Source of the DNA: Gammaproteobacteria bacterium
GTDB lineage: Bacteria; Pseudomonadota; Gammaproteobacteria; JBCCGL01
Direction: 5' to 3'
DNA: 64,000 bases
NCBI GenBank assembly: GCA_965277715.1
Contig: OZ255836.1
Coordinates: 4,111,632 to 4,175,631 of the forward strand
Shown here: piece after piece, positions 5,313-39,356 of the stretch
Position numbering within the stretch: position 1 is the stretch's first letter
Layout of the letters: every line of letters starts with the position of its first letter
Program-made: the position numbers and the translations under genes
The notes under the pieces: model-generated
What the model was told of the DNA's origin: nothing
Seen by the model: only the letters and a program-made list of their open reading frames with translations
Databases searched by the model: none

Positions 5313-7160
5313 ATGAGTCGGCGTGACCCCATTCGCAACCATGTGCTTGAAGGCGCGCTGTTTAGGCGGCGGGTCATTATTTCGCTGTTGTTTGGTCTGC
5401 TGCTGGTGGGCGTACTGCTGACACGCTTGGCGTATTTGCAGTTAGTCAGTTTTGACCACTATTCGACATTATCCACCAATAACCGTATGCGTTTGCAGGC
5501 TGTTGCCCCACCACGCGGTTTAATTTTTGACCGCAATGGTGTTGTGCTGGCTGAAAATCTGCCCACCTATCGACTGGAGATAACCCCTGAGGAAGTCGGT
5601 GATATGGATGAGACCCTGGAGGAACTTGCCGGGGTAGTCGATGTTTCCAAGCGTGAAGTGCAACGCTTTCGCAAAGCACTCAAGCGTGCGCGCCCGTTTG
5701 AAGATATTCCGCTGCTGTTTAATCTCAGCGATGAACAAGTGGCACGCATAGCGGCGGTGCGCCATCAGTTTCCCGGTGTTGAAATTAGTGCGCGTTTGAG
5801 CCGTCACTACCCCCAGAACGCTGTTGCCGGGCACACGATCGGTTATGTTGGGCGTATCGATGAGCGCGAGCTTAAGGCAGTCGATCAAACCAACTATGCG
5901 GCGACTAACCATATTGGTAAAGTTGGTATCGAAAAGTATTACGAGGAGCGTTTGCACGGCAAGGTTGGTTACCAGCGTGTTGAAGTGAACGTCGCGGGGC
6001 GCGTATTGCGGGTGCTTGAAGAGCAGGCGCCTATCGCCGGGCAAAACTTACACTTAACGCTGGATATTGCCCTGCAAAAAACAGCCGAGCAGGCAATGGG
6101 TGAACACAGCGGATCGGTGGTAGTGCTCGACCCTGAGAACGGCGATATATTAGCGATTGTCAGTCAGCCGACCTTTGATCCCAATTTGTTTGTCAATGGT
6201 ATTTCACACGAAAACTACGCGATACTGCGCAATGACAAAGCGCAGCCACTCTTTAACCGGGCATTGACCGGGCAGTACCCACCTGGCTCGACGATCAAGC
6301 CGATTATTGGCCTGGCCGGGTTAAGCAGCAAAGTGCAAAAACCCCGGCAGCGTATCTTTTGCCCTGGCCGCTATTCGCTACCTAACGATGAGCGCAAATA
6401 CCGGGACTGGAAAAAGACAGGGCATGGCTCTGTGAATCTCACTGACGCCATTACCCAATCCTGCGATGTATTGTTTTACGATATGGCGTTGCGGATGGGG
6501 ATCGACCGCATTTCGCCCGTACTGGAAATCTTTGGTTTGGGCACGGCAACCGGGGTCGATACCACGGGCGAGGCAGACGGTATACTGCCATCGCGGCAAT
6601 GGAAAAATGCCGTTAAAGGGCAGTCCTGGTTTCCTGGTGAAACCCTGATTACGGGCATTGGGCAGGGGTATATGCTGGTGACGCCTCTGCAACTGGCCAG
6701 CGCGACGGCTATGTTGGCAACACGGGGGGAACGGGTCAAGCCCCGCCTGTTGTACCGTGTACAGGCGTCTGCGGATGAATCGGTAGAGATGCAGGCTCCC
6801 ACTGCGCCGGTCAAGGTGGGGGTATTTGACGCGGCACATTGGGAGTATATTCACAAGGCGATGGTGGACGTTGCCCACACCCCCCGTGGAACGGCGTATC
6901 GTGCCAACCGTGGGACCACTTATCGCGTTGCGGCGAAAACGGGTACGGCGCAGGTATTTGGCATCGCCCAGGATGCAAAGTATGAAGCGGACAAACTCAG
7001 CAGAAAACTGCGTGATCACGCTGTGTATATTGCCTACGCCCCCGCCGATGCACCGCGTATTGCCATTGCGGTAATTGTTGAACACGGTGGTAGTGGTGGT
7101 AGCGTTGCCGGCCCGATAGCCCGTGAGGTAATGGATGCTTATCTGGTTGGCCAGCATTAG
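5313..7160 (+). CDS. mrdA: penicillin-binding protein 2 (elongasome transpeptidase)
   Basis: 615 aa, colinear with E. coli PBP2. It has an N-terminal TM helix and the SxxK (STIKP), SxN and KTG (KTGTAQV) motifs. It is followed by rodA. Confidence 0.9.
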   Translation: MSRRDPIRNHVLEGALFRRRVIISLLFGLLLVGVLLTRLAYLQLVSFDHYSTLSTNNRMRLQAVAPPRGLIFDRNGVVLAENLPTYRLEITPEEVGDMDETLEELAGVVDVSKREVQRFRKALKRARPFEDIPLLFNLSDEQVARIAAVRHQFPGVEISARLSRHYPQNAVAGHTIGYVGRIDERELKAVDQTNYAATNHIGKVGIEKYYEERLHGKVGYQRVEVNVAGRVLRVLEEQAPIAGQNLHLTLDIALQKTAEQAMGEHSGSVVVLDPENGDILAIVSQPTFDPNLFVNGISHENYAILRNDKAQPLFNRALTGQYPPGSTIKPIIGLAGLSSKVQKPRQRIFCPGRYSLPNDERKYRDWKKTGHGSVNLTDAITQSCDVLFYDMALRMGIDRISPVLEIFGLGTATGVDTTGEADGILPSRQWKNAVKGQSWFPGETLITGIGQGYMLVTPLQLASATAMLATRGERVKPRLLYRVQASADESVEMQAPTAPVKVGVFDAAHWEYIHKAMVDVAHTPRGTAYRANRGTTYRVAAKTGTAQVFGIAQDAKYEADKLSRKLRDHAVYIAYAPADAPRIAIAVIVEHGGSGGSVAGPIAREVMDAYLVGQH

Positions 7161-7300
7161 CGGGCCGGAATTAATTCAGTTGAACCATGGTGAGAACACT
7201 TTACCTTCAGTGTATTGACATCTAAATGTGTGAAGTAAACTCAACTTATTGGTTTAGCGTTAAATGACAATCTGTTTTTAGCACTGTGGGTGAATAACCT

Positions 7301-8431
7301 TTGTTTCGAAATGAACCATTAAACCAACGGCGTCATCCGGCGGCGGCCCGTATGTTAGGTGCTTTGCCCCGGCTGGACTATGTACTGTTATACAGTTTAC
7401 TGGCGCTGGCGTTGGTCGGCTTAACCGTGCTGTATAGCGCATCCGGGCATGATCTCGATCAGATAATGCGCCAGTGCATACGTCTGGGTATTGGTTTTGT
7501 GGTTATGCTGCTCATTGCGTACATCAACCCGGATACCCTGCGTTTTTGGTCTCCCTGGTGCTATTTGCTGGGTTTGTTGATGTTAGTTGCTGTGCTGTTT
7601 TTTGGTGAAGTGGGCAAGGGTGCACAACGCTGGCTGGATATTGGTGTGATGCGCTTTCAGCCTTCTGAATTGATGAAACTGGCGGTGCCGATGATGGTGG
7701 CTTGGTTTGTCAGCGAGCGCCCGTTACCCCCTAAATTTTTATGGTTGCTGGGGGCCTGCAGTCTGGTCGTGGTGCCCGCACTGCTCATCGCCCGGCAGCC
7801 GGATCTGGGCACTGCTTTACTGGTCGCCAGCGCCGGTTTTTTCGTGTTGTTTTTAGCGGGGATGCGCTGGCGGGTACTGCTTGGTGTCGTGGTTACGACA
7901 GCGGCAGGTATGCCTGTTCTGTGGCATTTTATGCACGACTACCAGCGCACTCGGGTGATGACACTACTGAACCCGGAATCCGATCCACTGGGGGCGGGTT
8001 ACCACATCATACAATCAAAAATTGCCGTGGGCAGTGGCGGTGTTTTTGGCAAGGGTTGGCTCAACGGCACGCAATCGCACCTGGATTTTTTACCCGAGCG
8101 ATCCACCGACTTTATTTTTGCTGTGTTTGGCGAAGAGTTTGGCTTTATCGGTGCAGTGGCGCTCATTGCGTTATACCTGTTTATTATTGCGCGTGGTCTG
8201 TATATTGCCTCTACCGCCCAGGGCAGTTATGCCCGTTTATTAGCGGGCAGCTTATCACTCACTTTTTTTATTTATTTACTGGTGAATATTGGTATGGTTA
8301 TCGGCCTGTTGCCCGTGGTGGGTGTGCCGTTACCCATGATCAGCTACGGCGGCACATCGGTAGTGACGTTGATGGCGGGTTTCGGTATTCTTATGTCGGC
8401 CCAGGCACACAAACGATTACTTTCTGAATAA
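7301..8431 (+). CDS. mrdB: rod shape-determining protein RodA (SEDS glycosyltransferase)
   Basis: Colinear with E. coli RodA (GAQRWLDIGVMRFQPSELMKLAVP, HDYQRTRVMTLLNPESDPLGAGYHIIQSKIAVGSGG). The ORF starts with TTG at 7301. An in-frame ATG at 7352 is an alternative start. Confidence 0.9.
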   Translation: MFRNEPLNQRRHPAAARMLGALPRLDYVLLYSLLALALVGLTVLYSASGHDLDQIMRQCIRLGIGFVVMLLIAYINPDTLRFWSPWCYLLGLLMLVAVLFFGEVGKGAQRWLDIGVMRFQPSELMKLAVPMMVAWFVSERPLPPKFLWLLGACSLVVVPALLIARQPDLGTALLVASAGFFVLFLAGMRWRVLLGVVVTTAAGMPVLWHFMHDYQRTRVMTLLNPESDPLGAGYHIIQSKIAVGSGGVFGKGWLNGTQSHLDFLPERSTDFIFAVFGEEFGFIGAVALIALYLFIIARGLYIASTAQGSYARLLAGSLSLTFFIYLLVNIGMVIGLLPVVGVPLPMISYGGTSVVTLMAGFGILMSAQAHKRLLSE

Positions 8432-8446
8432 ACGGTACAGCTTCTT

Positions 8447-9433
8447 ATGCGATCTACCTCATTGTTATTATGTTTATGTCTATGTTCTTGGATCACCGGG
8501 GCACATGCCGACTATTCCAATAACGATAAAGCACGGCAATTTATCACGGATATTACTGCCAGACACTCGCTCAATGCCGCCGAGCTTAGAGGGTTGTTTA
8601 AACAGATAGAACGACAGGACAGTGTTATCAAGGCTATTTCCCGGCCCGCTGAACGCGTGTTGAAATGGAAGGGCTACCGGCCTATTTTTATTACCGATAA
8701 ACGCATTGCGGCAGGTGTAAAATTTTGGCGTGAACACCGTGAACTGCTCGATAAAGTTGAGCGGGAATACGGTGTTCCCAGTGAAATTATTGTGGCCATT
8801 ATCGGTGTCGAAACCTTCTTTGGCCGTTATAAAGGCAAGTACTCTGCACTCGCCTCGCTGGCCACATTGGCATTTGACTACCCACCGCGCAGCAAATTTT
8901 TTCGCAGCGAACTGGAGCAGTTTTTACTGTTGGTAAAAGAGGAGTCACTCGATCCTCTGGCGGTCAAAGGCTCGTATGCCGCCGCGATGGGAATGCCGCA
9001 GTTTATATCCAGTAGCTACCGCGAGTATGCCGTCGATTTTGATGGCGATGGCCGCCGCGATCTGTGGAATAACATCGCCGATGTCACCGGGAGCGTGGCC
9101 AACTATTTTCGCCGTCACGGCTGGCAACGGGGGCAGCCGATTGCCGAAAAGGTCAGCCCGGACGGCGAACGCTATAAACCGTTGATTGCTAAAAAACTCA
9201 AACCCACTGTCAGTAATGCCCAGTTACAGGCGGCGGGCATCGAATTAAAACAACCATCAAAGGGCGATAAGTCGCTGTACCGTTTGATTGGCAGCAAAGG
9301 TGAGGAACTATGGGTTGGCCACAAAAATTTTTATGTCATCACCCGCTACAACCACAGCAAACTTTACGCGATGGCGGTATTTCAACTCAGTCAGCGTATC
9401 GCGGCGGCAATGGCCTCGCCATCAGCTAACTGA
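8447..9433 (+). CDS. mltB: lytic murein transglycosylase B family
   Basis: Signal peptide plus an SLT_2/MltB-like sequence (GVETFFGRY, GMPQFISSSYREYAVDFDGDG). Conserved position after rodA. Confidence 0.7.
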   Translation: MRSTSLLLCLCLCSWITGAHADYSNNDKARQFITDITARHSLNAAELRGLFKQIERQDSVIKAISRPAERVLKWKGYRPIFITDKRIAAGVKFWREHRELLDKVEREYGVPSEIIVAIIGVETFFGRYKGKYSALASLATLAFDYPPRSKFFRSELEQFLLLVKEESLDPLAVKGSYAAAMGMPQFISSSYREYAVDFDGDGRRDLWNNIADVTGSVANYFRRHGWQRGQPIAEKVSPDGERYKPLIAKKLKPTVSNAQLQAAGIELKQPSKGDKSLYRLIGSKGEELWVGHKNFYVITRYNHSKLYAMAVFQLSQRIAAAMASPSAN

Positions 9434-9451
9434 TCAAATAATAGTGAAACC

Positions 9452-10393
9452 GTGAAATCGCTTCTCTTACAAAAATGCCCGCTAAGCTGTAGAGCGTGTC
9501 TTAAAAGTGCCCCACCCTCAGAGCGAGGGGTTGGGGTGAGGAACTTTTCCGACATCCTCTGTGCGGGAGTGGCGGGGTTTCTGCTCGTTGCGGTACTGCT
9601 GTTGGGTGCCTGCTCGACTACCGATGTAGGTAATGTCGATGAAGATAAAGATGGGCCGGGTGGCCATGTTGATGCCGATGCAGTTGACGACGCTATAGCA
9701 CGGCGGGAACCGTTTAGCCGCTATGGTAACCCCCCTTCTTATGAAGTAAACGGTGTTCGCTATACCGTGCTGGACAGCAATAAGGGTTATGTGGAAAAGG
9801 GCAATGCCTCCTGGTATGGGAAGAAATTTCATGGCCGCAGAACCTCCAGTGGCGAGGTGTTTGATATGTACAAGGCGACGGCGGCACACCGCAGTTTGCC
9901 ATTGCCGACCTATGCGTATGTCACCAACCTCGACAATGGCAAGACACTGCTGGTTAAAATCAATGACCGTGGCCCTTTTCACAGTGACCGTATCATCGAC
10001 TTATCCTATGCAGCGGCGGTAAAACTTGGCTTTGCCAATGCCGGTATTGGTCATGTGGAGGTACGCGCTATTAATTTTGATCAGGCATCGGCAAAAGCCC
10101 CTCCGGCCACTGATGAAACACCCGGCACTGCCCGCGTACCACTCCCCGCAACGCCCCAACAGACGTACATACAGATAGGTGCTTTCAAATACCGGGTGAA
10201 TGCACAGGCAGCCGGTGAGCGTTTGCAAGCGGCTGGGTTTTCTGCGGTATCTGTTGACCAGGCGCAATCGCTAAACGGTGACCCACTCTACAAAGTGCGC
10301 ATGGGGCCTTATGACAGCCTGGCGGAAACGGACGCGGTTATCAGCCAGTTGCAGGCGGCGGGAATAACCGGCTTTAGCCTGCTGGATAATTAA
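9452..10393 (+). CDS. rlpA: septal ring lytic transglycosylase RlpA (DPBB domain plus C-terminal SPOR domain) lipoprotein
   Basis: Lipoprotein signal (LLLGAC|S). RlpA DPBB motifs (GNASWYG, HRSLPLPTYAYVTNLDNGK..VKINDRGPF). A C-terminal SPOR-like region (YIQIGAFKYRVNAQ...). A likely alternative GTG start at 9536 gives a cleaner signal peptide. Confidence 0.7.
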   Translation: MKSLLLQKCPLSCRACLKSAPPSERGVGVRNFSDILCAGVAGFLLVAVLLLGACSTTDVGNVDEDKDGPGGHVDADAVDDAIARREPFSRYGNPPSYEVNGVRYTVLDSNKGYVEKGNASWYGKKFHGRRTSSGEVFDMYKATAAHRSLPLPTYAYVTNLDNGKTLLVKINDRGPFHSDRIIDLSYAAAVKLGFANAGIGHVEVRAINFDQASAKAPPATDETPGTARVPLPATPQQTYIQIGAFKYRVNAQAAGERLQAAGFSAVSVDQAQSLNGDPLYKVRMGPYDSLAETDAVISQLQAAGITGFSLLDN

Positions 10394-23030: not shown

Positions 23031-23406
23031 CTGCGTTGCTCTACCTCCTGTGTCCCTACAGTCGTCGGCAACTGCTCCTGCGTTGCTCTACCTCCTGTGT
23101 CCCTACAGTCGTCGGCAACTGCTCCTGCGTTGCTCTATCTCCTGTGTCCCTACAGTCGTCGGCAACTGCTCCTGCGTTGCTCTATCTCCTGTGTCCCTAC
23201 AGTCGTCGGCAACTGCTCCTGCGTTGCTCTATCTCCTGTGTCCCTACAGTCGTCGGCAACTGCTCCTGCGTTGCTCTATCTCCTGTGTCCCTACAGTCGT
23301 CGGCAACTGCTCCTGCGTTGCTCTATCTCCTGTGTCCCTACAGTCGTCGGCAACTGCTCCTGCGTTGCTCTAGCTCCTGTGTCCCTACAGTCGTCGGTAA
23401 CTGTTT
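23031..23406. repeat. tandem array of a 47-bp direct repeat, about 8 copies (7 near-identical plus 1 degenerate)
   Basis: Unit CTGCGTTGCTCT(A/T)(C/T)CTCCTGTGTCCCTACAGTCGTCGGCAACTGCTC. Copies start at 23031, 23078, 23125, 23172, 23219, 23266, 23313 and 23360. They abut each other with no spacers. All three forward frames are open across the array only because the unit lacks stop codons. Confidence 0.9.
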
Positions 23407-23768: not shown

Positions 23769-24359
23769 TCACTTTTTCATAAATTCAACAAACACTACAG
23801 CCGAGCCGTTGATAAGAATGCTTTCAACGTCGGATAAGGGTATTTCCGTATTTTCGCTATCAAGCCAGCTCGCCTCCCTGAGTAGAAAATGGCCGCTATG
23901 CGGTTCAGTTGGCCATTCTGAAGGCCAGCCGTATATTCTTCTACCATCATCCAGGTGCAATACAACATAGGTTATATTGTCGGCAAAGGCGCTAAACCAC
24001 TCGGACGCATAAGATGTTTCGCGGGTGATAGCGAGTTTTCTCATCAGCGCGTGAAACTTATCATTGTTTGCAAAATAAGCAAACACTAGACCCAATAGCA
24101 ATGATGTTATTAAGGCGCTGAGTAATTCGGTATTGGTATTCCATTCTATCCATCCGGGGTGTAGGCCCGTTACATTGGCCAGTGCTTTAAACAGAAACCC
24201 TAAACCCTGGATAATAATAGTAAATATGAGTGCTTGAACAACCCGTTCAAAATGGGATTGCTTGGGGTAGGAGGTAAAGGCATAAAAAATCCACGCGGTG
24301 ACGAAGCCGGGCAGCAGATATTGCAATAGTGATATAACACCGGTGTTGATTAAATCCAT
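23769..24359 (-). CDS. hypothetical membrane protein with about 3 N-terminal TM helices and a C-terminal soluble domain
   Basis: 196-aa ORF with hydrophobic helices (LLQYLLPGFVTAWIFYAF, VVQALIFTIIIQGLGFLF, LLSALITSLLLGLVFAYF). It lies in an AT-rich context, divergent from the CHAT gene. No recognisable motif. Confidence 0.4.
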   Translation of the reverse strand: MDLINTGVISLLQYLLPGFVTAWIFYAFTSYPKQSHFERVVQALIFTIIIQGLGFLFKALANVTGLHPGWIEWNTNTELLSALITSLLLGLVFAYFANNDKFHALMRKLAITRETSYASEWFSAFADNITYVVLHLDDGRRIYGWPSEWPTEPHSGHFLLREASWLDSENTEIPLSDVESILINGSAVVFVEFMKK

Positions 24360-24492: not shown

Positions 24493-25962
24493 ATGGAACA
24501 GCACAATATTTTGATACTCGGCGCCAGCCCCTGGAATCTTCACCGGGTTAGCCATGATGTAGAAATTCGTAATATACAAAAAGCCATAAAAAAAAGTAGT
24601 GGCGCAGATGCATTCTCTATCGAAACCAACTCCGCCGCGCAGTATCAGGATTTAGGCGAGGCGGTTTTGGCGCAGCAACCGCATATCCTGCATTTCTGTG
24701 GGCATGGCGGGGGTGATGTGGGGTTGGTTTTTGTGGATGAAGATAACAACGCCCAGCTCGCGGATAACACGGCTATGGAAAAACTCATCCGTATGCTGGG
24801 CAATCATGTGCGCTGTGTGTTTCTCAATGCCTGTTACAGTGAGGTGCAGGCAAAGTTACTAATTCCTCATGTCGACTATGTTATTGGCGTGCAGGGCACA
24901 GTGGGTGATGCCGACGCTCAGGCGTTTAGCACGGCATTTTATGAAAAACTGGGGGCTGGTTACCCGCTTACCTATGCTTTTGAGTTGGCCTACAACGACC
25001 ACTACCACGCCGAGCACTGTCGGCCAGTGTTGCTCAGCCGCAGTGAGCACCGCCTCTACCACAGTGATCTCGATACCCTCAATGAAATAAGCCAACGGTT
25101 GCAAACCGTCACCCCTGGTATTGCCCTCCTGGGCCAGGCGGGCCGTATCAGTGCTGCTTTGCCTCCAGCACTGCGAGCACGGATGCAGGGAACCTTTGGC
25201 CCTGAACGGGTATTAACACTTAGCCCCGTCAGTGACGACAAACAACAAGGTGCATTTTTTGCCCATCTCGCCGAGCAGGCGCAGTCTGATCAGGTCGACT
25301 TTAGCGGGTTAGCAACCGTCTTACAGCACCGGGTGGAAGACGGTAGCCTGCGCTGCCTGTTGCTAGGCCATTTGCAGCGCGGTAGCGCTGAAGAGTCCCG
25401 GCAACTGGCCGAGTTGTTGCGCAATTTATGTGAAGGGGGGCGGTTAAAGGTGGTGATTTACGGTGAGCGAAGACTGCGCGATTTAATGGTGCTTAACGGT
25501 GCGCTATCACCGCTGAATATGTTGGATTCACTCTACCTTGCCGAGTTGGGTGTAGAGGATGTTCTCAAGCTTGAGCCAGAGTTGAAGAGAGAAGAAGCCG
25601 AGGATTTGTTGGCGCTGTCTGGCGGGCACCCACGGCTGTTGCGTGAAGCGCTGTTTTGCTATCGCCAACAACCCAATCTGAATAAGGTAGCCGAGCAGTT
25701 GCAAACTGCGGTCGATGATATTGTCGATCAATGTCTTTGTGATTTTCGGGGGCAGGAGGATAGTATGGTGTTGTTAGCGGATTGCTTGCGTGAAGAACGG
25801 GCGGGTTACCGAGCAGACTTGATAGGTGATGAAGTGTTGGCGGCTTTATATTGGCATAACTTGCTGCGGCAGCAGGGGCATCAGTTGTACTGGCGTTGTA
25901 GTTTATTGCGTGAGACGGTGGAAGCAGTAGCGGCCAGCCTGGCCCGGCGGGCGGGGGTGTGA
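24493..25962 (+). CDS. CHAT-domain (caspase-like, clan CD) peptidase with a C-terminal alpha-helical domain of unknown function
   Basis: The N-terminal ~130 aa carry the CHAT/caspase His-Gly and Cys catalytic dyad in the canonical context (PHILHFCGHGGGD ... VRCVFLNACYSE). The remaining ~330 aa are Leu/Arg-rich and helical. There is no signal peptide. The stop at 25960-62 lies 1 nt before the next gene's GTG start. Confidence 0.7.
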   Translation: MEQHNILILGASPWNLHRVSHDVEIRNIQKAIKKSSGADAFSIETNSAAQYQDLGEAVLAQQPHILHFCGHGGGDVGLVFVDEDNNAQLADNTAMEKLIRMLGNHVRCVFLNACYSEVQAKLLIPHVDYVIGVQGTVGDADAQAFSTAFYEKLGAGYPLTYAFELAYNDHYHAEHCRPVLLSRSEHRLYHSDLDTLNEISQRLQTVTPGIALLGQAGRISAALPPALRARMQGTFGPERVLTLSPVSDDKQQGAFFAHLAEQAQSDQVDFSGLATVLQHRVEDGSLRCLLLGHLQRGSAEESRQLAELLRNLCEGGRLKVVIYGERRLRDLMVLNGALSPLNMLDSLYLAELGVEDVLKLEPELKREEAEDLLALSGGHPRLLREALFCYRQQPNLNKVAEQLQTAVDDIVDQCLCDFRGQEDSMVLLADCLREERAGYRADLIGDEVLAALYWHNLLRQQGHQLYWRCSLLRETVEAVAASLARRAGV

Positions 25963-25963
25963 T

Positions 25964-28900
25964 GTGCAGTTGAGACTTAGCGTGGCGTTACGCTACGGCT
26001 TACTATTGGGTTTGTGTGTGGGGTGGCTGCCGTTGGGGGTAGTGGCGGATGCTGTGCGACCGGCTTTGGTGCCTGCGGGTGAGCAGTTGGCTAGTGGTGA
26101 AGGGGCGTTGGATAGTTTGGCTCGGCGTTTGAATACACGCTTGGGCACTGTCCATCACGCGGCCTTCAGCCCGCAGGGAGATCGCATCGTTACGGCATCG
26201 AGTGATAACACTGCGCGGCTGTGGAATGCAGACAATGGCGAACTGATTGTGGTGCTTGAGGGGCATACGGATTGGGTTAATCACGCGGCTTTCAGCCCGC
26301 AGGGAGATCGAATCGTTACGGCATCGGATGATAATACTGCGCGGTTATGGAACGCAGACAATGGCGAACTGATTGCGGTGCTTGAGGGGCATACGGGCAG
26401 AGTTTATCACGCGGCCTTCAGCCCGCAGGGAGATCGCATCGTTACGGCATCGGGTGATGATACTGCGCGGCTGTGGAACGCAGACGATGGTGAACTGATC
26501 GATGTGCTTAAGGGGCATACGGATTGGGTTAATCACGCGGCTTTCAGTCCACAGGGAGATCGAATCGTTACGGCATCGGATGATAATACTGCGCGGTTAT
26601 GGAACGCAGACAATGGCGAACTGATTGCGGTGCTTGAGGGGCATACGGGCAGAGTTTATCACGCGGCCTTCAGCCCGCAGGGAGATCGCATCGTTACGGC
26701 ATCGGGTGATGATACTGCGCGGCTGTGGAACGCAGACGATGGTGAACTGATCGATGTGCTTAAGGGGCATACGGATTGGGTTAATCACGCGGCTTTCAGT
26801 CCACAGGGAGATCGAATCGTTACGGCATCGGATGATAATACTGCGCGGTTATGGAACGCAGACAATGGCGAACTGATTGCGGTGCTTGAGGGGCATACGG
26901 GCAGAGTTTATCACGCGGCCTTCAGCCCGCAGGGAGATCGCATCGTTACGGCATCGGGTGATGATACTGCGCGGCTGTGGAACGCAGACGATGGTGAACT
27001 GATCGATGTGCTTAAGGGGCATACGGATTGGGTTAATCACGCGGCTTTCAGTCCACAGGGAGATCGAATCGTTACGGCATCGGATGATAATACTGCGCGG
27101 TTATGGAACGCAGACAATGGCGAACTGATTGCGGTGCTTGAGGGGCATACGGGCAGAGTTTATCACGCGGCCTTCAGCCCGCAGGGAGATCGCATCGTTA
27201 CGGCGTCGAGAGATAACACTGCGCGGCTGTGGAACGCGGGCGATGGCGAACTGATCGCGGTGCTTGAGGGGCATACGGGCAGAGTTTATCACGCGGCTTT
27301 CAGCCCGCAGGGAGATCGCATCGTTACGGCATCGAGAGATAACACTGCGCGGCTGTGGAATGCAGACAATGGCGAACTGATTGTGGTGCTTGAGGGGCAT
27401 ACGAGTTGGGTTTATCACGCGGCCTTCAGCCCGCAGGGAGATCGCATCGTTACGGCATCGAGAGATAACACTGCGCGGCTGTGGAATGCAGACAATGGCG
27501 AACTGATTGTGGTGCTTGAGGGGCATAGGAATAGGTTTTATCACGCGGCCTTCAGCCCGCAGGGAGATCGCATCGTTACGGTATCGGGTGATGATACTGC
27601 GCGGCTGTGGAATGCAGACGATGGTGAACTGATCGATGTGCTTAAGGGGCATACGGATTGGGTTAATCACGCGGCTTTCAGTCCACAGGGAGATCGAATC
27701 GTTACGGCATCGGGAGATAACACTGCGCGGCTGTGGAATGCAGACAATGGCGAACTGATTGTGGTGCTTGAGGGGCATAGGAATAGGGTTTCTCACGCGG
27801 CCTTCAGCCCGCAGGGAGATCGCATCGTTACGGCATCGGGTGATGATACTGCGCGGCTGTGGAATGCAGACAATGGCGAACTGATTGCGGTGCTTGAGGG
27901 GCATAGGAATAGGGTTTCTCACGCGGCCTTCAGCCCGCAGGGAGATCGTATCGTTACGGCATCTAGGGGTAAGACTGTGCGGCTGTGGAGCGCAGACGAT
28001 GGCGAACTGATCGCGGTGTTTGAGGGGCATACGGATCGGGTTACTCACGCAGCCTTCAGCCCGCAGGGTAATCGCATTGTCACCGCCTCATTCGATGGCA
28101 GTATAAGACTATGGGACACAGATACAGCTAAACCGCTACGGCTTATGGTGGCCACCAGCAACGGCCAATGGCTAAACTGCCAGGCGAACGGCCATTGCTT
28201 ACGCCACGACGATGGCACATTGTTTTGGCCGCCTCTACCTCCCCAGGCCACAGGCGGTAAACTGAGCCTGGAAAATCTGCCCGAGGCGACAATCGACACC
28301 TGTATGTCGCTGCCTTGCGAGCCACGCGACTTTGTTGTCGGGATTCGCAATACCGGCACCGCGCCACTCTATTGGCTACAAGTGGTCTCGGCAGAAAGCG
28401 GCCCTGTCTCACTGTCATTACCCCCACCGCCGTTACCGCCATTGCACCCCGATGATCATGTTGAGCTAAGCATACGCCTGGCCAGCGTAGCACCCACACA
28501 GCAACCCCAGCGCCAAAACACCAGTATAAAATTGGCTATTCGCCACGCCCATGGCGAATTACCAATAGACCTGCCAGTAACCGTGCGCACCCCAGAGATT
28601 ACTCTGCTGGAAGCCAGCCTGACAGAAAACCGCGAAACCATCGCAGTGCAGGTGAGTAACCACGGCGGGGTTTCACTATCCCAGGCGGTTGCAGAGGCCG
28701 CCATCAATGGCCAGGCGATACCCGGTAGCCTTAACCTTCCAGTGCTTCCGGGCAATATGTCGAAACCACAACAATTGGCTTTTACGGCGCCCGCAGATTT
28801 TAACTACCCGGACGACACTGAGTTCACTTTGCAGTTGCGCAACGCCAACTACCCCCATTATCAGTGGACACTCAAACACCCGCTCACCCTGCCCTGGCAA

Positions 28901-30586
28901 CTCTATACCTTGCTGGCAGCACTGATTCTGGTGCTTGGCGGGCTGGCCTGGTTTGTCGGTGTGCGCTGGCATCCACTGGTGCGGCTGGCGGTTAATCAAG
29001 GCCCCACCGCGCTGGCACTGCCCCAGCTGGGCCAGGCGCGCCGCTGGCTGCAACGCGCCCGCCTGTGGCGGGATACCGTGCAGGCGCAAGGGCTGGCAGC
29101 GCGCTGGCAAAGCGCCGAGGCGTTTTTGGCCTGCCCTGACCCGGTGCAGCAAATCGAACAACTGGCCGGGCGTTTACAGGCCGAGGTGTTGCCCGCGAAT
29201 GAGGCTACCCCCACCTGGCTGGCCACCTTGCGTCTTAACGAAGGCTTTATCCTGCGCTTACCACAGTGCACGGTGGCGCTGCCCGGCGCCGATCATTCTA
29301 TCGACCAGATCACCACTCAGCTACGCCGTTGCGAAGGTGTATGCCTGCTAATCACCACAGACCCGGATCAACAGGCCGCGCTGCGCGCCGACCGCCAGGC
29401 CACCTGGGTGATACCGGACAACCAGGCTTTGGTGCGCCTATGGCTGGCAGCGGCGGATAAGGTTAACGATCAACTGGCCTCTATTATCGCCGAGCAGGTC
29501 GATACCCGTAGCCTTTCGCCCTGGCGCACTGGTCACGGTATGGAGGATATGACGATGTTTTTTGGCCGCGACCAGTTACTGCGCGATATCCTCGAACGAC
29601 CACCGCGTAACTACCTGCTGGTTGGGGCGCGGCAGCTGGGTAAAACCAGTCTGCTGCAAAAACTGCAACATCTCTGCGATCAGCGCGATACATTGCGTGG
29701 CTTTAAAATCTCGCTGGGCTCCGGCCATTTTGCCATCGATTTGCAACGCATCGCTGGGCAGTTGGCGTTGGCGCGCAACGCCTCTTTGCCAGACATTCTC
29801 ACTGCGTTGGCGCACCCGCCCGCCGGGATCCATCACTGGTTGTTAGTCGACGAGGCCGACGAGCTGGCGGGCAACCACACCCCGGAAAATGCAGCGGTTT
29901 TAGATCAAATGCGCAACCTGAGCGCCGAGGGCCGCTGTCATTTTATCCTCGCCGGGTTTTGGGGCCTGTACCGTGAGGCGATACTGGAGTACCAATCAAA
30001 ACTGAAAAACTTTGGTGACCTGCTGCTGTTGGATGCTCTGGAAGACAAGGCCAGCCGGGCGCTACTCACCCGGCCTATGCACGCCTTGCAGATTCACTAC
30101 CAGGATGACACCCTGGTAACGCGGATTCTGCACGAGACCGGCGGGCGCACTAATTTGCTGGCTATTGTCGCCGATGACCTGGTGCGCCGACTTGGCAATC
30201 AACGCCGGGTGATTACCGATGAAGATATCAGCGAAGTGCTAAACGATGCGGTGTTTCAGGATCGCCTGCTCGACTGGAAAACACTATCAGGGAATATACT
30301 AGATCAAATACTGGTATACGCTAGTATCGACCTCAACCCACTAGAGCAGGGTTTTACCGAGGCTGAATTATGGCAACGGTTGGATGAATTGGGAGACGAA
30401 GTATCCGATGATGCCGTACAAAATTCGCTGATTCGTTTACGGCTGGGATTTATCATCAAACGCGTTGGTGGACGTTACTACTATCGCGTGCCCGTGCAAG
30501 TACAGCAAATCCTCGACAGCGAACCGGAGCGTGCCTTGCGTAGATTGCTCAATTCTTTAGTCGGTGATATATCGAAACAATGTTGA
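25964..30586 (+). CDS. giant multidomain protein: signal peptide or anchor, then about 16 WD40 repeats, beta-rich linker domains, a single TM helix, then a cytoplasmic STAND/AAA_16-like P-loop NTPase with a C-terminal winged-helix
   Basis: N-terminal hydrophobic leader (LRYGLLLGLCVGWLPLGVVA). 16 units of a 42-aa WD40-like blade (HAAFSPQGDRIVTASxDNTARLWNADxGELIAVLEGHTxxV). A TM helix (LYTLLAALILVLGGLAWFVGVRW, nt ~28897-28970). Then FFGRDQLLRDILERPPRNYLLVGARQLGKTSLL, which is the FxGR-x(n)-GxxxxGKT/S pattern typical of STAND/AAA_16 ATPases. Walker B HHWLLVDEADEL. C-terminal wH-like RLRLGFIIKRVGGRYYYRVP. GTG start coupled to the CHAT gene. Confidence 0.75.
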   Translation: MQLRLSVALRYGLLLGLCVGWLPLGVVADAVRPALVPAGEQLASGEGALDSLARRLNTRLGTVHHAAFSPQGDRIVTASSDNTARLWNADNGELIVVLEGHTDWVNHAAFSPQGDRIVTASDDNTARLWNADNGELIAVLEGHTGRVYHAAFSPQGDRIVTASGDDTARLWNADDGELIDVLKGHTDWVNHAAFSPQGDRIVTASDDNTARLWNADNGELIAVLEGHTGRVYHAAFSPQGDRIVTASGDDTARLWNADDGELIDVLKGHTDWVNHAAFSPQGDRIVTASDDNTARLWNADNGELIAVLEGHTGRVYHAAFSPQGDRIVTASGDDTARLWNADDGELIDVLKGHTDWVNHAAFSPQGDRIVTASDDNTARLWNADNGELIAVLEGHTGRVYHAAFSPQGDRIVTASRDNTARLWNAGDGELIAVLEGHTGRVYHAAFSPQGDRIVTASRDNTARLWNADNGELIVVLEGHTSWVYHAAFSPQGDRIVTASRDNTARLWNADNGELIVVLEGHRNRFYHAAFSPQGDRIVTVSGDDTARLWNADDGELIDVLKGHTDWVNHAAFSPQGDRIVTASGDNTARLWNADNGELIVVLEGHRNRVSHAAFSPQGDRIVTASGDDTARLWNADNGELIAVLEGHRNRVSHAAFSPQGDRIVTASRGKTVRLWSADDGELIAVFEGHTDRVTHAAFSPQGNRIVTASFDGSIRLWDTDTAKPLRLMVATSNGQWLNCQANGHCLRHDDGTLFWPPLPPQATGGKLSLENLPEATIDTCMSLPCEPRDFVVGIRNTGTAPLYWLQVVSAESGPVSLSLPPPPLPPLHPDDHVELSIRLASVAPTQQPQRQNTSIKLAIRHAHGELPIDLPVTVRTPEITLLEASLTENRETIAVQVSNHGGVSLSQAVAEAAINGQAIPGSLNLPVLPGNMSKPQQLAFTAPADFNYPDDTEFTLQLRNANYPHYQWTLKHPLTLPWQLYTLLAALILVLGGLAWFVGVRWHPLVRLAVNQGPTALALPQLGQARRWLQRARLWRDTVQAQGLAARWQSAEAFLACPDPVQQIEQLAGRLQAEVLPANEATPTWLATLRLNEGFILRLPQCTVALPGADHSIDQITTQLRRCEGVCLLITTDPDQQAALRADRQATWVIPDNQALVRLWLAAADKVNDQLASIIAEQVDTRSLSPWRTGHGMEDMTMFFGRDQLLRDILERPPRNYLLVGARQLGKTSLLQKLQHLCDQRDTLRGFKISLGSGHFAIDLQRIAGQLALARNASLPDILTALAHPPAGIHHWLLVDEADELAGNHTPENAAVLDQMRNLSAEGRCHFILAGFWGLYREAILEYQSKLKNFGDLLLLDALEDKASRALLTRPMHALQIHYQDDTLVTRILHETGGRTNLLAIVADDLVRRLGNQRRVITDEDISEVLNDAVFQDRLLDWKTLSGNILDQILVYASIDLNPLEQGFTEAELWQRLDELGDEVSDDAVQNSLIRLRLGFIIKRVGGRYYYRVPVQVQQILDSEPERALRRLLNSLVGDISKQC
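26140..28120 (+). repeat. intragenic tandem DNA repeats (126-bp WD40 unit; 252-bp super-unit) with near-100% nucleotide identity
   Basis: At least three perfect 252-bp copies lie between about 26280 and 27100. The minus-strand ORFs 26345-26536, 26597-26788 and 26849-27040 have identical translations at exact 252-bp spacing. About 10 further, slightly diverged 126-bp units follow. Confidence 0.9.
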
Positions 30587-30708
30587 GGAGCGCATAACGG
30601 TAGACTGTAAGCGCCCTTAAATCAGCCTCTATTCCAAGGTAATGTCCAAAACGACATTCCAAGGTAGCAAGGCCTCTATCTTTTCAAGGAAAAAAAAAGA
30701 AAAAAAAA

Positions 30709-30806
30709 GGGGTCAAGGCAGTTATTTCCTATATTTCTTGCTGGAAATCACTGTTTTTATCCGTATTAGTCGTTGTATGGTGAATAATAAGCCTGACCCC
30801 CTTGCT
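30709..30806. mobile_element. MITE-like ~95-bp repeat element, copy 1 (short GGGGTCA terminal inverted repeats)
   Basis: AAAAAGGGGTCAAGGCAGTTATTTCCTATATTTCTTGCTGGAAA(T/C)CACTGTTTTTATCCGTATTAGTCGTTGTATGGTGAATAATAAGCCTGACCCCCTTGCTTTT. It recurs almost identically at 34784 and 37611. Its ends are inverted (GGGGTCAAG ... CCTGACCCC). Confidence 0.55.
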
Positions 30807-31187
30807 TTTAGGCTACGCAAAATTAGCCACAGCAGAAATACAATACCAGCGAGCTGGATGGTTATACCGAGAACAGCATTCATAAGGGGTTTCTCCAGAT
30901 TACGCCGGGGGAACCTCCTTCCCTGCCGGGAAGAAAAACCCCGGCAGGGTGGTTAAAACAAAATAAAAACAAAAAATAATGGGCTGCTTCTTTTGAGAGA
31001 CCAGCTATCTCTTAGGGCATACCTATCGGCAACGCCCTGACACTGACCGGGGTCAGCAATAAGTAGAAACCAAGATAGCGTGTCCTGCTAGAACGGGCAG
31101 TGAAGAAGATGGCAGTTTTTAACACCTATCGCACCGCCACAAAAATACACTGGTACTACCCTGATATTTTTATCTGGTGGCAATGTT

Positions 31188-34369: not shown

Positions 34370-35105
34370 GTGACTGATTTCTTGTTTAAGCACAGCACCA
34401 CGGTTGGCCAGCCCGGCTATTTTTTGCATGGTTTGTTATTAGACGGAAACCCCACATTCAGTGAAGGCGTGTACAGGCTTAACCATTGGGCCGTGCGCTT
34501 AGGCCGCGATGCGCATTCAGATGAAGCCCGCATGGCTTCTTTGCACGAAATGTATCATGCGACATTGAACGACAGTACTGCATACGGAACGTTAATGCAT
34601 GTGGTGGGATTATTTTGCCGCACCTATCCAGAAGAGAACCAATGGCCGAATCTTTTGCAGGCGCTTATCGACTCAGCGTTGCGCTGCCATGAAACCTATG
34701 CAACCTACGCGTCTGTATTTGTTGTTGGTAAAGGCTCGCCGAACAGAGCTGTGCTCGAACAGTATCCTGAAAGTCATTAAAAGGGGTCAAGACAGTTATT
34801 TCCTATATTTCTTGCTGGAAACCACTGTTTTTATCCGTATTAGTCGTTGTATGGTGAATAATAAGCCTGACCCCCTTGCTTTTCAAATTATGCGGGCGCA
34901 TGCGAATCTCACTGGTGCAGATGCTGATGGTTGGCTGACATCTCGTCAGGTTGCTGGATATCATCATGACGTATTTGCAACATATGGATTACCTGCCAGG
35001 ACTTTTGGTGGAACGCCAATAACAAGCGCTTTGTGGGAGTCAAACATTAATTTTGGAGGTTTTTTGGGCTACCGATATTGGTGTGATGGATGTGCTTCTC
35101 AATGA
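34370..35105 (+). pseudogene. hypothetical HExxH-motif gene disrupted by a MITE insertion
   Basis: The ORF 34370-34780 (contains LHEMYHATLND) stops exactly at the MITE border. The reading frame resumes after the element in a different frame (34884-35105: QIMRAHANLTGADADGW...). A ~97-bp insertion accounts for the +1 frame change. Confidence 0.45.
34784..34878. mobile_element. MITE-like ~95-bp repeat element, copy 2 (inserted in a coding sequence)
   Basis: Near-identical to copies 1 and 3 (GGGGTCAAGACAGTTATTTCC ... AAGCCTGACCCCCTTGC). Confidence 0.55.
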
Positions 35106-36042: not shown

Positions 36043-37611
36043 TAGAATGGCACTTCCTTAAGCTCTAAGTACATGAAAAATATGGAAGTACTTTCATTGT
36101 AAATGACCTATTTCTGTTTTTTGGGATGGCCATATTTTTTAACAACACTTCTGGCCACGTCCCTTGGCTGCATCAATAAAGGATACGGTTTGGGTCTTCG
36201 TTTAACCACTCTTGGTTCAATACGCCCCGGTCGATTACCCACACAGTTTTCTGCAATCAACGCACATAGCGCCAACACCTTATCACTACCCAGAGGGCTA
36301 CCGCCTTTCTGATAACGATACGTTACCCAAATTTGTAACGTATGCTTAAAACTTATCTGTCGAGGCAGTATGTCCACTAGTAAGGCAGATTGCGCCATTA
36401 ATAAGCGAATAAGGTTGTAAGCTAATATGTGTACCCACATTTCCTTCTCAACCATTTCTGGCGTCTTACAACGGAAAGTGTGCATCTTCATTGTCGTTTT
36501 TATATGGCGTAAATCAAGTTCGACATGCCAGCGTTCTTTGTAGAGCTGTTTAAGCGCCTCTTTAGACGCCGATTTAACTGATAACAACGTTGTCACCAAC
36601 AGTTTTTTACCCACTTTCAGTTCACGTATAACCACTTCATCAGCAGCCGCTTCATAGGCTTCTTCGCTCATCCACTCTGGTCTCTTCTTGGGCTTTGTAT
36701 AACAAATCAGATGATCCTTCGATCCAAGCCTTTTGCCTTCTCGAAAATCTGTGGATTTACGCCGCGCACCATGCGGCTCAAATACACCGTCTACTCCTTG
36801 CTCTATAAGGTTTGCTAGAAAAAAATAACCCGCAAAATAGGCATCACCCACCACAATATCACCCGGTTTAAGCGCATTTTGTATTTTTCTCAATAACGTT
36901 TGCTCATCCGCTCCCTTACCTTTAAAAGGACCCATTGCCGCATCGAGAACACCACCACTGGCTAAACAAATAATTCCTACCCAGCGACAAAGAGGAAAAC
37001 CGATCCCCACTTGCTGGCCTGACTGTTGCGGATAAACTACCTGATTTTCAGGCGTATCGGGCATTGTCACAGTGGTGCCGTCAACCAATTTAACTGAACG
37101 CCCTTGCCAGTGCCAGTGACTGGCCGCTTCATTCGCCACACACTCGCCTGTACAACGGGCAAGCCCTGAGACGAGGGGGGTTGGCAGCCTTTGTCGCGCT
37201 TTACAATAACTCCCTGTATACGTATTACTCACTGATAAACCTTCACTTAATCGCTGTACAGCGAGTGTGTTGACAGCTTGTTGGCAGGACTGATCTGCAC
37301 TCATTGTTTGGTATAAAAACAGCGATAAGGTATCTAGAGGAGGATAGCGACGCGCTCGAAAATCCGGTTGTAATTCTTCCAGTTTCGTAAGTAACTGAGA
37401 GGATGTCAGCAAGTGATAAAAACTCAATGCATCCGAGGATTGAGCTCGGCTTTTGATGCGACGTTGAAGAATGTTGACTTTTACATTACTCTGCATGATG
37501 GCTGGTTCCTGTGGGATAAAGGGTATTTGTGTTGGCAACAAATAACCTACCATAGAACCAGCTTTTTTTGTAATTACTTCAAATACTTACAGCTTAAGGA
37601 AGTGCCATTCG
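36043..37611 (-). mobile_element. IS4-family insertion sequence (~1.57 kb) with ~20-bp terminal inverted repeats
   Basis: Left end GAATGGCACTTCCTTAAGCTCT (36043-) and right end AGCTTAAGGAAGTGCCATTC (-37611) are reverse complements of each other. The element encloses a single transposase gene. Confidence 0.7.
36108..37553 (-). CDS. IS4-family DDE transposase
   Basis: 481 aa colinear with IS4-type transposases (…DGTTVTMPDTPEN…, …LLRKIQNALKPGDIVVGDAYFAGY…, …YKERWHVELDLRHIKTTMKMH…LIRLLM…). Confidence 0.85.
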   Translation of the reverse strand: MVGYLLPTQIPFIPQEPAIMQSNVKVNILQRRIKSRAQSSDALSFYHLLTSSQLLTKLEELQPDFRARRYPPLDTLSLFLYQTMSADQSCQQAVNTLAVQRLSEGLSVSNTYTGSYCKARQRLPTPLVSGLARCTGECVANEAASHWHWQGRSVKLVDGTTVTMPDTPENQVVYPQQSGQQVGIGFPLCRWVGIICLASGGVLDAAMGPFKGKGADEQTLLRKIQNALKPGDIVVGDAYFAGYFFLANLIEQGVDGVFEPHGARRKSTDFREGKRLGSKDHLICYTKPKKRPEWMSEEAYEAAADEVVIRELKVGKKLLVTTLLSVKSASKEALKQLYKERWHVELDLRHIKTTMKMHTFRCKTPEMVEKEMWVHILAYNLIRLLMAQSALLVDILPRQISFKHTLQIWVTYRYQKGGSPLGSDKVLALCALIAENCVGNRPGRIEPRVVKRRPKPYPLLMQPRDVARSVVKKYGHPKKQK

Positions 37612-37706
37612 GGTCAAGGCAGTTATTTCCTATATTTCTTGCTGGAAACCACTGTTTTTATCCGTATTAGTCGTTGTATGGTGAATAATAAGCCTGACCC
37701 TCTTGC
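37611..37706. mobile_element. MITE-like ~95-bp repeat element, copy 3, abutting the IS4 right end
   Basis: GGGTCAAGGCAGTTATTTCCTATATTTCTTGCTGGAAACCACTG ... AAGCCTGACCCTCTTGC. It is followed by the short CCTCCCTTG x3 repeat. Confidence 0.55.
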
Positions 37707-37782
37707 CTCCCTTGCCTCCCTTGCTTTCTAATAGTAATCTCCAAAGTGCACACGGTGATAATCGGACTACACGCAGAGGAGG

Positions 37783-38894: not shown

Positions 38895-39356
38895 CTACTG
38901 CGAAAACTCACTTCGCTGCCTCACTGCTTTACGTAAATTTTTTAGTTTAGTTGAATTATGTTCTCTATACATAATCTCTGAACCATGCTCAAGCTCTTCA
39001 TAGATTGGCAGTAGTTCGGTTACACCTTCAAAAATCCATTGCACGGGAATTCCTTCAGACCCACCCTTGTATGGTTCTGTTTGATATTTAGCTTCTTCAG
39101 TAATTTTATCGTAAGCATCTTCTAAATTTTCTGCTTGGATGATTATTGTATTTTCCCAAGCCGTAAATCTTTTTTCTGGATCTTCGTTTCCCTGTTCTTC
39201 TAACGCTACAAAGCGAATTATGTAGGAAGCAACATACCATCCAACTGGGGAAATATTCTTATCACTCATGCTTATACCTAACGCTCGCGATTGTAATATC
39301 ACACCAAGGTTGGTCGCTGCAATATTATTGTCAGTTATATAGGGGGCAAGTATCAT
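38895..39356 (-). CDS. hypothetical protein
   Basis: 153-aa ORF at the edge of the AT-rich island. No assignable motif. Confidence 0.3.
   Translation of the reverse strand: MILAPYITDNNIAATNLGVILQSRALGISMSDKNISPVGWYVASYIIRFVALEEQGNEDPEKRFTAWENTIIIQAENLEDAYDKITEEAKYQTEPYKGGSEGIPVQWIFEGVTELLPIYEELEHGSEIMYREHNSTKLKNLRKAVRQRSEFSQ

Follow-up and report, generated by a model that had tools for sequence, protein, structure and literature searches.

A gammaproteobacterial gene pair combining a CHAT-headed, putatively inactive STAND adaptor with a predicted membrane-spanning STAND receptor

Counter-invader systems built on nSTAND1 NTPases have been described as cytoplasmic single chains or as pairs coupled through effector-associated domains (EADs), with an N-terminal effector or EAD, a central NTPase and a C-terminal sensor (PMC8195603). 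In the two-gene nSTAND2 system an active STAND gene is adjacent to an eroded one, which carries interchangeable effectors (GT4/HEPN), and the two products are predicted to form a hetero-multimer (PMC8195603). Here we analysed a pair of genes at positions 24493 to 30586 of a 64,000-nucleotide stretch (the window; contig OZ255836.1 of assembly GCA_965277715.1, Gammaproteobacteria bacterium, positions 4,111,632 to 4,175,631). The pair resembles the nSTAND1 systems in its NTPase family, in the caspase-like/CHAT, trypsin and TIR effectors found with it and its relatives, and in its sensor, which is of the repeat type where theirs are repeat or lectin-type (PMC8195603). It differs in that the second protein has an N-terminal, predicted extracytoplasmic sensor, a transmembrane (TM) helix and a novel juxtamembrane domain before the NTPase, and no effector or EAD on the chain; the effector is provided in trans on a pseudo-STAND adaptor and not through an EAD or Death-like domain. 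With the nSTAND2 system it shares the adjacent active and eroded STAND genes and the interchangeable effectors on the eroded one. However, its NTPase is nSTAND1/AAA_22-like, its effector set is another one, and the nSTAND2 proteins are cytoplasmic, whereas the receptor of the window would span the membrane with a predicted periplasmic WD40/immunoglobulin-like (Ig-like) part.

Several other systems are alike in part. In the apoptosome of Apaf-1/CED-4 and caspase-9/CED-3, too, a nucleotide-binding oligomerisation domain (NOD) ATPase and a WD40 sensor go together with a protease of the caspase fold, for which activation by proximity is presumed. The window pair, in contrast, has no CARD-CARD recruitment, its WD40 repeats are N-terminal to the NOD and on the other side of the membrane by prediction, the protease is carried on an inactive NOD of its own, and the ligand would be extracytoplasmic. 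Avs proteins, with Avs4 (8dgf) as a structural neighbour, likewise have a STAND NTPase, a repeat sensor and a toxic effector, but each is a soluble single chain and detects phage proteins within the cytoplasm, and no PADLOC Avs model matched the pair. SAVED-CHAT (8tl0), associated with CBASS and type III CRISPR, is the nearest solved structure to the CHAT domain of the window; the activator there is a SAVED cyclic-oligonucleotide sensor, whereas here it would be a pseudo-STAND adaptor together with a membrane NTPase. The fungal HET-E/D/R and hnwd NLRs have near-identical 42-aa WD40 repeats with few variable columns, a STAND NTPase, unstable repeat numbers and a link to cell death, but are cytoplasmic, with the WD40 repeats C-terminal to NACHT and an N-terminal HET effector (PMC1805685, PMC2873952, PMC4986451). 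Toll-like receptors are a functional analogy to the TIR-headed relatives of the pair, with an outside repeat sensor, a single TM helix and a cytoplasmic assembly recruiting a TIR protein. They are not homologous to it: they lack an NTPase, use leucine-rich repeats and carry the TIR domain on the receptor itself.

The window system is a CHAT-headed member of a two-gene module with plug-in outputs. In a sequence-only reading of this DNA, two genes 1 nt apart had been described, and both open reading frames (ORFs) were found in place on the + strand. A single nucleotide separates the TGA stop of gene 1 from the GTG start of gene 2, and a G-rich stretch lies 6-10 nt 5' of the GTG. A consensus scan between the two genes gave no promoter or terminator signal above chance, which is consistent with a single operon. 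The features of the pair are as follows; structure models are from AlphaFold2 (AF2), with the predicted local distance difference test (pLDDT) as score.

24493..25962, + strand: gene 1, 489 aa, ATG start; CHAT head plus putatively inactive STAND-like adaptor (AF2 pLDDT 81.4)
24493..25032, + strand: predicted CHAT (caspase-like) domain, aa 1-180 (Pfam PF12770); His71 at nt 24703-24705, Cys114 at nt 24832-24834
25060..25959, + strand: adaptor, aa ~190-489, with a modelled STAND-fold nucleotide-binding domain (NBD), helical domain and winged helix, without Walker A/B (alignment, AF2, Foldseek)
25964..30586, + strand: gene 2, 1540 aa, GTG start; predicted membrane-spanning STAND receptor
25964..26053, + strand: signal-peptide-like N-terminus, aa 1-30 (...VVADA|V), hydropathy peak at aa 9-31, ending in A-D-A
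26060..26086, + strand: family motif PALVPAGEQ (consensus PPLVPEGE), also in P0022, L005, L007, L010 and many representatives
26132..28168, + strand: 16 WD40 blades, predicted periplasmic (Pfam WD40; Tandem Repeats Finder, TRF)
26408..27163, + strand: three perfect tandem copies of a 252-bp two-blade unit, blades 3-8 (pairwise DNA identity matrix)
28169..28888, + strand: Cys motif (WLNCQANGHCLRHDDG; C739/C745, plus C780/C785) and two Ig-like domains (weak CARDB match, E 0.028)
28901..28963, + strand: single predicted TM helix, aa 980-1000, hydropathy peak 2.38, a long isolated helix in the model
28964..29533, + strand: juxtamembrane module, aa 1001-1190, with a helical segment and a small alpha/beta domain (model elements H30-97, E112-H204)
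29570..30085, + strand: nSTAND1 NTPase (PF20703); Walker A GARQLGKTS at nt 29624-29650, Walker B LLVDEAD at nt 29840-29860
30086..30583, + strand: helical domain and winged helix completing the NOD (model elements H408-481, E524-533/H536-544)

The N-terminal head of protein 1 was matched by PF12770 over residues 15-176 with 36.4 bits (39.5 bits for the head alone) against a curated cutoff of 24. The His/Cys dyad, H71 in GHG and C114 in NACYS, was invariant in an alignment with five homologues, so that the caspase-like dyad noticed in the sequence-only reading is indeed intact. In a Foldseek search against the PDB the top match of the protein 1 N-terminus was the SAVED-CHAT filament 8tl0 (E 6e-10), which superimposed on the CHAT head with 25% identity and a root-mean-square deviation of 3.2 Å over ~192 columns. 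Based on profile, alignment and model the head is best taken as a CHAT protease with an intact His/Cys dyad and the caspase-hemoglobinase fold. Only one full-length CHAT homologue was found (P0002, 30% identity); 3' of it lie a small ORF and then a signal-peptide protein that reaches the contig end.

Protein 1 had been read as a stand-alone CHAT protease. This was refuted, as its C-terminal 300 aa are a STAND-fold module without Walker motifs. Residues ~190-489 can be aligned with the STAND module (AAA_35) found in cyanobacterial fusions of CHAT and AAA_35; the aligned part begins at the sensor-1 strand, includes a GGHP motif and reaches the C-terminal winged helix. In comparison to these active fusions, Walker A (GKT) and Walker B (DE(V/A)D) are missing: 'LLGQAGRIS' takes the place of the G..GKT loop, and 'LLLGHLQ' that of hhhDE. 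The AF2 model of protein 1 shows the topology of NBD, helical domain and winged-helix domain: its NTPase core is beta-alpha-beta, and a helical bundle and a winged helix follow. Foldseek neighbours of the C-terminus in the PDB were 2qen, 2fna, ORC/Cdc6, CED-4, Avs4, MalT and the Dark apoptosome. The NODs of both proteins had 2qen and 2fna, two STAND-like ATPases from archaea, as their top two structural neighbours. No Pfam family matched the adaptor above cutoff; AAA_35 (PF14516) reached 17.9 bits against a cutoff of 27, and even a sub-threshold match was seen in just 2 of 5 adaptor sequences. A profile search of solved-structure sequences with the adaptor, and with the cytoplasmic part of protein 2, gave no match. 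Judged from model and alignment, the C-terminus of protein 1 would be an inactive-STAND adaptor, or pseudo-NTPase. It falls outside the MoxR-vWA ternary iSTAND/iSTAND2 systems, a separation made by gene context and without an iSTAND profile comparison: no MoxR or vWA genes adjoin the pair in the window, and none recur in the related loci.

Protein 2 follows the order signal peptide, 16 WD40 repeats, TM helix and STAND NTPase that had been read from the sequence; that order stood, but the Cys motif, the Ig-like domains and the ~190-aa juxtamembrane domain had been missed. The Ig-like sequence, ~240 aa long, comes after the WD40 array and before the TM helix, and conservation of the Cys/Ig-like region extends to P0022, P0023 and the genome loci. 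The juxtamembrane module is conserved throughout the family, including the class with short sensors, and Pfam gave no match to any known family for it. The NTPase is nSTAND1 (PF20703; 38.6 bits against a cutoff of 27.1), as are those of 8 of 11 family members, and it does not group with a housekeeping ATPase family. With CHAT and nSTAND1 above their cutoffs and WD40 at E 1e-172, the profile searches agreed with the domains that had been proposed. Pfam listings for this module and its relatives contained nSTAND1, AAA_22, AAA_16, AAA_14, TniB and AAA_35, but no nSTAND2. Across 121 relatives the G, K, D and E positions of Walker A and B were invariant or nearly so, the Walker A lysine of protein 2 being K1227, and by its motifs the NTPase appears catalytically intact. 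In the AF2 model of aa 975-1540 (pLDDT 86, predicted template modelling score 0.77) the long TM helix leads into a helical juxtamembrane segment and a small alpha/beta domain, after which come the NBD, a helical domain and the winged helix; a winged helix had also been proposed, along with the P-loop NTPase, in the sequence-only reading. The modelled NOD was closest in the PDB to 2qen (1e-10), followed by 2fna and then ORC/Cdc6, CED-4 and Avs4. A lipoprotein signal was considered for the N-terminus of protein 2 and rejected, because Leu precedes Cys18 and there is no lipobox.

Next to the structure, the distribution of the pair was determined. An exhaustive HMMER profile search of representative protein clusters, with the Cys-Ig-TM-linker-NTPase region as query, gave 5,513 representatives at E<=1e-3 and 659 at E<=1e-30. 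Word-indexed searches (21 matches for protein 1, 3 for protein 2) had suggested a near-orphan status, which was overturned by the HMMER search. Dozens of the representatives are ~1,400-1,500 aa long, with signal peptide, PPLVPEGE, WD40, Ig, TM and nSTAND1. In reference genomes the family was found in Thiomargarita, Parabeggiatoa, Thiotrichales, Desulfococcaceae and Thermoanaerobaculia. Gene neighbourhoods were compared in six genome loci and in 80 NTPase-anchored metagenome loci from many sample types. The adaptor gene was directly upstream on the same strand in 55 of the 80 metagenome loci, and in nearly all of the other 25 the contig ends within or just before the receptor gene. Only three loci were informative negatives: one has an inserted PDDEXK_2-like gene (L017), one a degraded pseudogene (L066), and one appears to be a true orphan (L024). 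In the genome sample the gene immediately upstream of the receptor in L005, L007 and L010 encodes the adaptor domain with another head (TIR or two TM helices). The adaptor is directly upstream also in L001 and L004. This arrangement was seen in Thiomargarita, Thiotrichales and Thermoanaerobaculia genomes and spans phyla. Junctions between adaptor and receptor genes are typically a 4-nt overlap or a 1-4-nt gap. Scans of viral contigs with both profiles gave no relatives, which is neutral. No third gene family was found to recur beside the WD40-class pairs; recurrent neighbours were confined to one syntenic group of loci of the class with helix-turn-helix (HTH) heads.

Some loci showed rearrangements around the pair. 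In L005 (Thiomargarita) two genes, one per strand, are inserted between the adaptor and receptor genes at 5946-6879; judged only by their translations, the products resemble a YhcG/DUF1016-like protein and a HigA-like antitoxin. PDDEXK_2 (Rpn/transposase-like) genes lay immediately upstream of the expected adaptor position, or overlapped it, in L003 (2-151), L017 (110-1168) and L004 (8137-9084), which suggests recurrent disruption of the pair by a PDDEXK_2 element. In L031 two tandem adaptor genes, both with HTH-like heads, precede one NTPase gene (6932-9499).

The adaptor heads were then classified in 60 adaptor proteins, all of which have the C-terminal adaptor. HTH-like heads were the majority (35/60), followed by TIR heads (14/60) and two-TM heads (3/60). 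CHAT heads (the window and L001) and trypsin-like heads made up 2/60 each, a SIR2 head and a calcineurin-like phosphoesterase head 1/60 each, and the remaining 2/60 were a head matching no class (L090) and a frameshifted remnant (L004). Thus the gene pair is co-conserved, as had been asked of it, but the conserved partner is the adaptor with a variable head and not CHAT. WD40-type receptors pair with enzymatic or membrane heads, and short two-TM receptors with HTH heads. The TIR, SIR2, trypsin-like, phosphoesterase, CHAT and two-TM heads correspond to the toxic-effector set of conflict systems (PMC7159879, PMC8195603). The sister class (L011 9001-12422; L013 1125-4009; many of L044-L087) consists of an HTH-headed adaptor and a ~725-aa receptor with a 4-nt overlap. 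In this receptor TM - ~130-aa Cys-containing domain - TM replaces the WD40/Ig part, and the class is the commonest in the metagenome sample.

The WD40 array was found to have exactly 16 blades with a 42-aa period (16 Pfam WD40 stretches), and TRF reported a period of 126 with 15.3 copies and 87% match. Sixteen blades would suffice for two closed propellers. Blades 1-15 are mutually 81-100% identical, and DNA identity is 100% among blades 3/5/7 and among blades 4/6/8. The perfect threefold 252-bp repeat may be a very recent amplification, gene conversion or an assembly effect. Amino-acid differences between blades fall in ~9 of 42 columns (16, 18, 27, 32, 35, 38-40 and 42), and codon differences among blades 1-15 were 645 nonsynonymous against 483 synonymous. 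The variable columns flank the GH and S-x-D-x-T motifs, which we take to be at the propeller top, the ligand-binding face. Together this suggests a fast-evolving ligand-binding surface. Near-identical repeats with variation in few columns are also known from the WD40 arrays of fungal NLRs (PMC1805685, PMC2873952, PMC4986451).

We predict that the WD40/Ig region of protein 2 is extracytoplasmic and the NTPase cytoplasmic, because the ATPase must be cytoplasmic and the protein has a hydrophobic N-terminus and a single later TM helix. An N-terminal hydrophobic segment was present in 51 of 58 full-length relatives. In 109 relatives K+R next to the TM helix averaged 2.4 on the C-side and 1.2 on the N-side, a positive-inside bias. 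The motif cysteines were both present in 47 relatives, both absent in 27 and single in 4, as expected for a disulfide. In the class with short sensors, TM - ~130-aa Cys-containing domain - TM is found on the same cytoplasmic chassis. The membrane helix that had been placed between sensor and NTPase therefore belongs to a layout kept throughout the family, by predicted topology.

We propose that the pair forms a two-gene membrane-spanning STAND (NLR-like) module, most likely with a counter-invader or conflict outcome, and give this reading a probability of roughly 0.6. A periplasmic ligand would bind the WD40/Ig ectodomain of protein 2, and the signal would pass through the TM helix and the juxtamembrane domain to permit nucleotide-dependent oligomerisation of the nSTAND1 NOD on the cytoplasmic side of the membrane. 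Protein 1 would dock onto this oligomer or intercalate into it with its pseudo-NOD, in a heterotypic NOD-NOD assembly. The clustered CHAT heads would then be activated by proximity, as in SAVED-CHAT filaments or for caspase-9 on the apoptosome, and cleave cellular targets. Activation of CHAT by oligomerisation is established for SAVED-CHAT. Growth arrest or cell death would be the likeliest outcome, as a counter-invader or conflict response. The pairing of adaptor and NOD is supported by strict gene linkage, a common fold with the same best neighbours and a collinear, weak hhalign alignment, and the repertoire of heads in the WD40 class, which is that of conflict systems, favours a counter-invader or suicide role. 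An immune or apoptosis-like role would be plausible. Several points weigh against the proposal. The putative binding of the adaptor to the NOD of protein 2 is deduced from linkage and fold. The sequence similarity between adaptor and NOD is weak, with no significant BLASTP match between the C-terminus of protein 1 and the NTPase of protein 2, and with an hhalign alignment that is collinear over 248 columns (E 0.002) at a probability of only 14%, so that the homology of the two NODs rests on fold. PADLOC matched no system-level model to proteins 1 and 2 and gave no match for the neighbour genes. No candidate protease substrate (Pepco, EACC1, MBL-like) adjoins the pair; Pfam matched only DUF6338 among the neighbours, and the presence of Pepco/EACC1 models in the libraries used is unconfirmed. 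The perfect threefold repeat could partly reflect assembly. Signal peptide and topology were called from hydropathy and sequence rules. Finally, the commonest head is HTH-like and paired with short sensors, which for much of the wider family points to transcriptional signalling over suicide.

This last point leads to the chief alternative, in which the module is a non-immune transmembrane signalling device for an envelope, environmental or cell-cell cue, with HTH heads acting on transcription and CHAT as a protease that is regulatory and not lethal, with a regulator, for instance, as its target. Transcription regulation by STAND NTPases with HTH outputs is established, MalT is among the structural neighbours of the adaptor, the missing PADLOC matches fit this view as well, and the window pair adjoins flagellar regulatory genes. 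We consider it unlikely for the window pair, as sensors of its WD40 class go with the toxic-effector heads, head swapping on a constant chassis together with highly internally conserved WD40 repeats is a hallmark of conflict systems, and the flagellar adjacency is not conserved in other loci. Less probable still is an allorecognition, kin-discrimination or developmental cell-death device of filamentous multicellular bacteria, where the exposed, rapidly diversifying WD40 repeats would detect neighbours that are non-self or damaged, within a periplasm or sheath common to the cells, and set off local cell death, in functional analogy to the fungal HET-E/D NLRs. The genome matches are indeed mostly large or filamentous sulfur bacteria (Thiomargarita, Parabeggiatoa, Thiotrichales), the sensor is predicted to be extracytoplasmic, and 100%-identical blades with variation in few columns recall the fungal hnwd/HET genes (PMC2873952, PMC1805685). 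However, this taxonomic signal comes from six genome loci only, which include Desulfococcaceae and Thermoanaerobaculia, and the mechanism overlaps with that of the counter-invader module, differing only in the nature of the ligand. Two further explanations appear very improbable, to a similar degree. The sequence-only reading had compared the pair to the module set of Apaf-1/caspase-9. In a literal split apoptosome CHAT itself would be the conserved partner, with direct activation by the NTPase of protein 2, and the rest of protein 1 irrelevant. The CHAT, WD40 and STAND modules are all there, and the structural neighbours of the NOD modules include CED-4 and the Dark apoptosome; but the head census contradicts it, with CHAT in 2 of 60 partners and the C-terminal adaptor in all, and the order and compartment of the sensor are unlike those of Apaf-1. 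No CARD or Death-fold domain was found in Pfam or fold searches of proteins 1 and 2, so the apoptosome recruitment device is missing, and coupling would most likely go via the pseudo-NOD. The other is that the hydrophobic segments do not span the membrane and protein 2 is a soluble or peripheral cytoplasmic STAND with N-terminal WD40 repeats. Where bacterial STAND proteins carry WD40 repeats of the eukaryote type, these are usually in the cytoplasm, which counts for this explanation, as does the way the topology was called. Against it stand two suitably placed hydrophobic segments kept throughout the family, an A-x-A cleavage motif, covarying Cys pairs, the positive-inside bias and the TM - small domain - TM layout of the short class, and since the ATPase must stay cytoplasmic, the region between the TM segments is forced outside.

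The sequence-only reading was not aware of a description of such an arrangement. Full-text literature searches (supplementary tables of the Aravind group aside) gave none either, although the logic of an active and an inactive STAND protein with the effectors on the inactive one has a precedent in concept in the nSTAND2 pair (PMC8195603). 'Transmembrane STAND ATPases' fused to Pepco-associated proteases have been mentioned in passing, in one line and with the architecture not in the text (10.1101/2025.11.14.688446). There protease and sensor form one fusion protein, which has a Pepco pore-former as its partner, whereas the window has no adjoining Pepco-like gene and its protease is on a separate adaptor protein. 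The arrangement of the window is not a one-off, as it belongs to the large family of 659 clusters (E<=1e-30) described above. Its predicted unusual features are an extracytoplasmic WD40 sensor, a membrane-spanning STAND protein and an inactive-STAND adaptor with interchangeable effectors. We tentatively suggest, at somewhat less than even odds, that the family, with the window pair as its type example, is a widespread undescribed class of bacterial surface NLR-like receptors, in which a protein with hypervariable periplasmic WD40 repeats, TM helix and STAND domain co-assembles with inactive-STAND plug-in effector adaptors, their heads being CHAT, TIR, SIR2, trypsin, pore-like TM or HTH.

To our knowledge every characterised STAND/NLR immune receptor, whether from bacteria, fungi, plants or animals, detects its ligand within the cell. 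With a sensor beyond the membrane this class would gain a new input compartment, and the family would be the first among STAND/NLR receptors with demonstrated sensing outside the cytoplasm, with a TLR-like topology and NLR-like switching. The ligand could then be a phage particle, a competitor or a neighbour cue. The inactive-STAND adaptor would be a new effector-recruitment device beside CARD/Death-like and EAD domains, and the pair a natural, genetically simple two-gene system for studying a STAND switch driven across a membrane. The WD40 specificity, which is suggested to evolve fast, could become a target for mining or re-engineering. Should the role be immune, the pair would be a defence system that current catalogues lack.

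Rfam gave no match in the window and NCBIfam no named-family match for the pair. PADLOC hits were confined to generic chat and SAVED_CHAT matches for protein 1 and to WD40-driven or chance matches for protein 2. The region is flanked by a DUF6338 gene (23769-24359, - strand) and a DUF4288 gene (38895-39356, - strand), neither of which is conserved with the pair or has a PADLOC match. The DUF6338 gene was considered as a partner of the pair and rejected, as it is not co-conserved with the pair in other loci. A flagellar cluster with flagellin, FliD-like and FliS-like genes and a FleQ-type sigma-54 activator lies 5' of the pair and is not kept beside it in other loci. Between this cluster and the pair there is a 47-bp tandem repeat, followed by the divergent DUF6338 gene. 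The repeat (23031-23403; 7.9 copies, 99% identity) occupies intergenic DNA, with the FleQ-like activator gene on one side and the DUF6338 gene on the other.

Directly 3' of gene 2 a low-GC stretch (41-47%) begins, which contains an IS4-type transposase. A 114-nt direct repeat occurs three times in this low-GC island, at 30696-30809, 34770-34883 and 37597-37710, with copies 2 and 3 being 95% and 86% identical to copy 1. The third copy abuts the 5' end of the IS4-type DDE transposase gene (36108-37553, - strand), and the repeat may be a miniature inverted-repeat transposable element (MITE) or the end of an insertion sequence.

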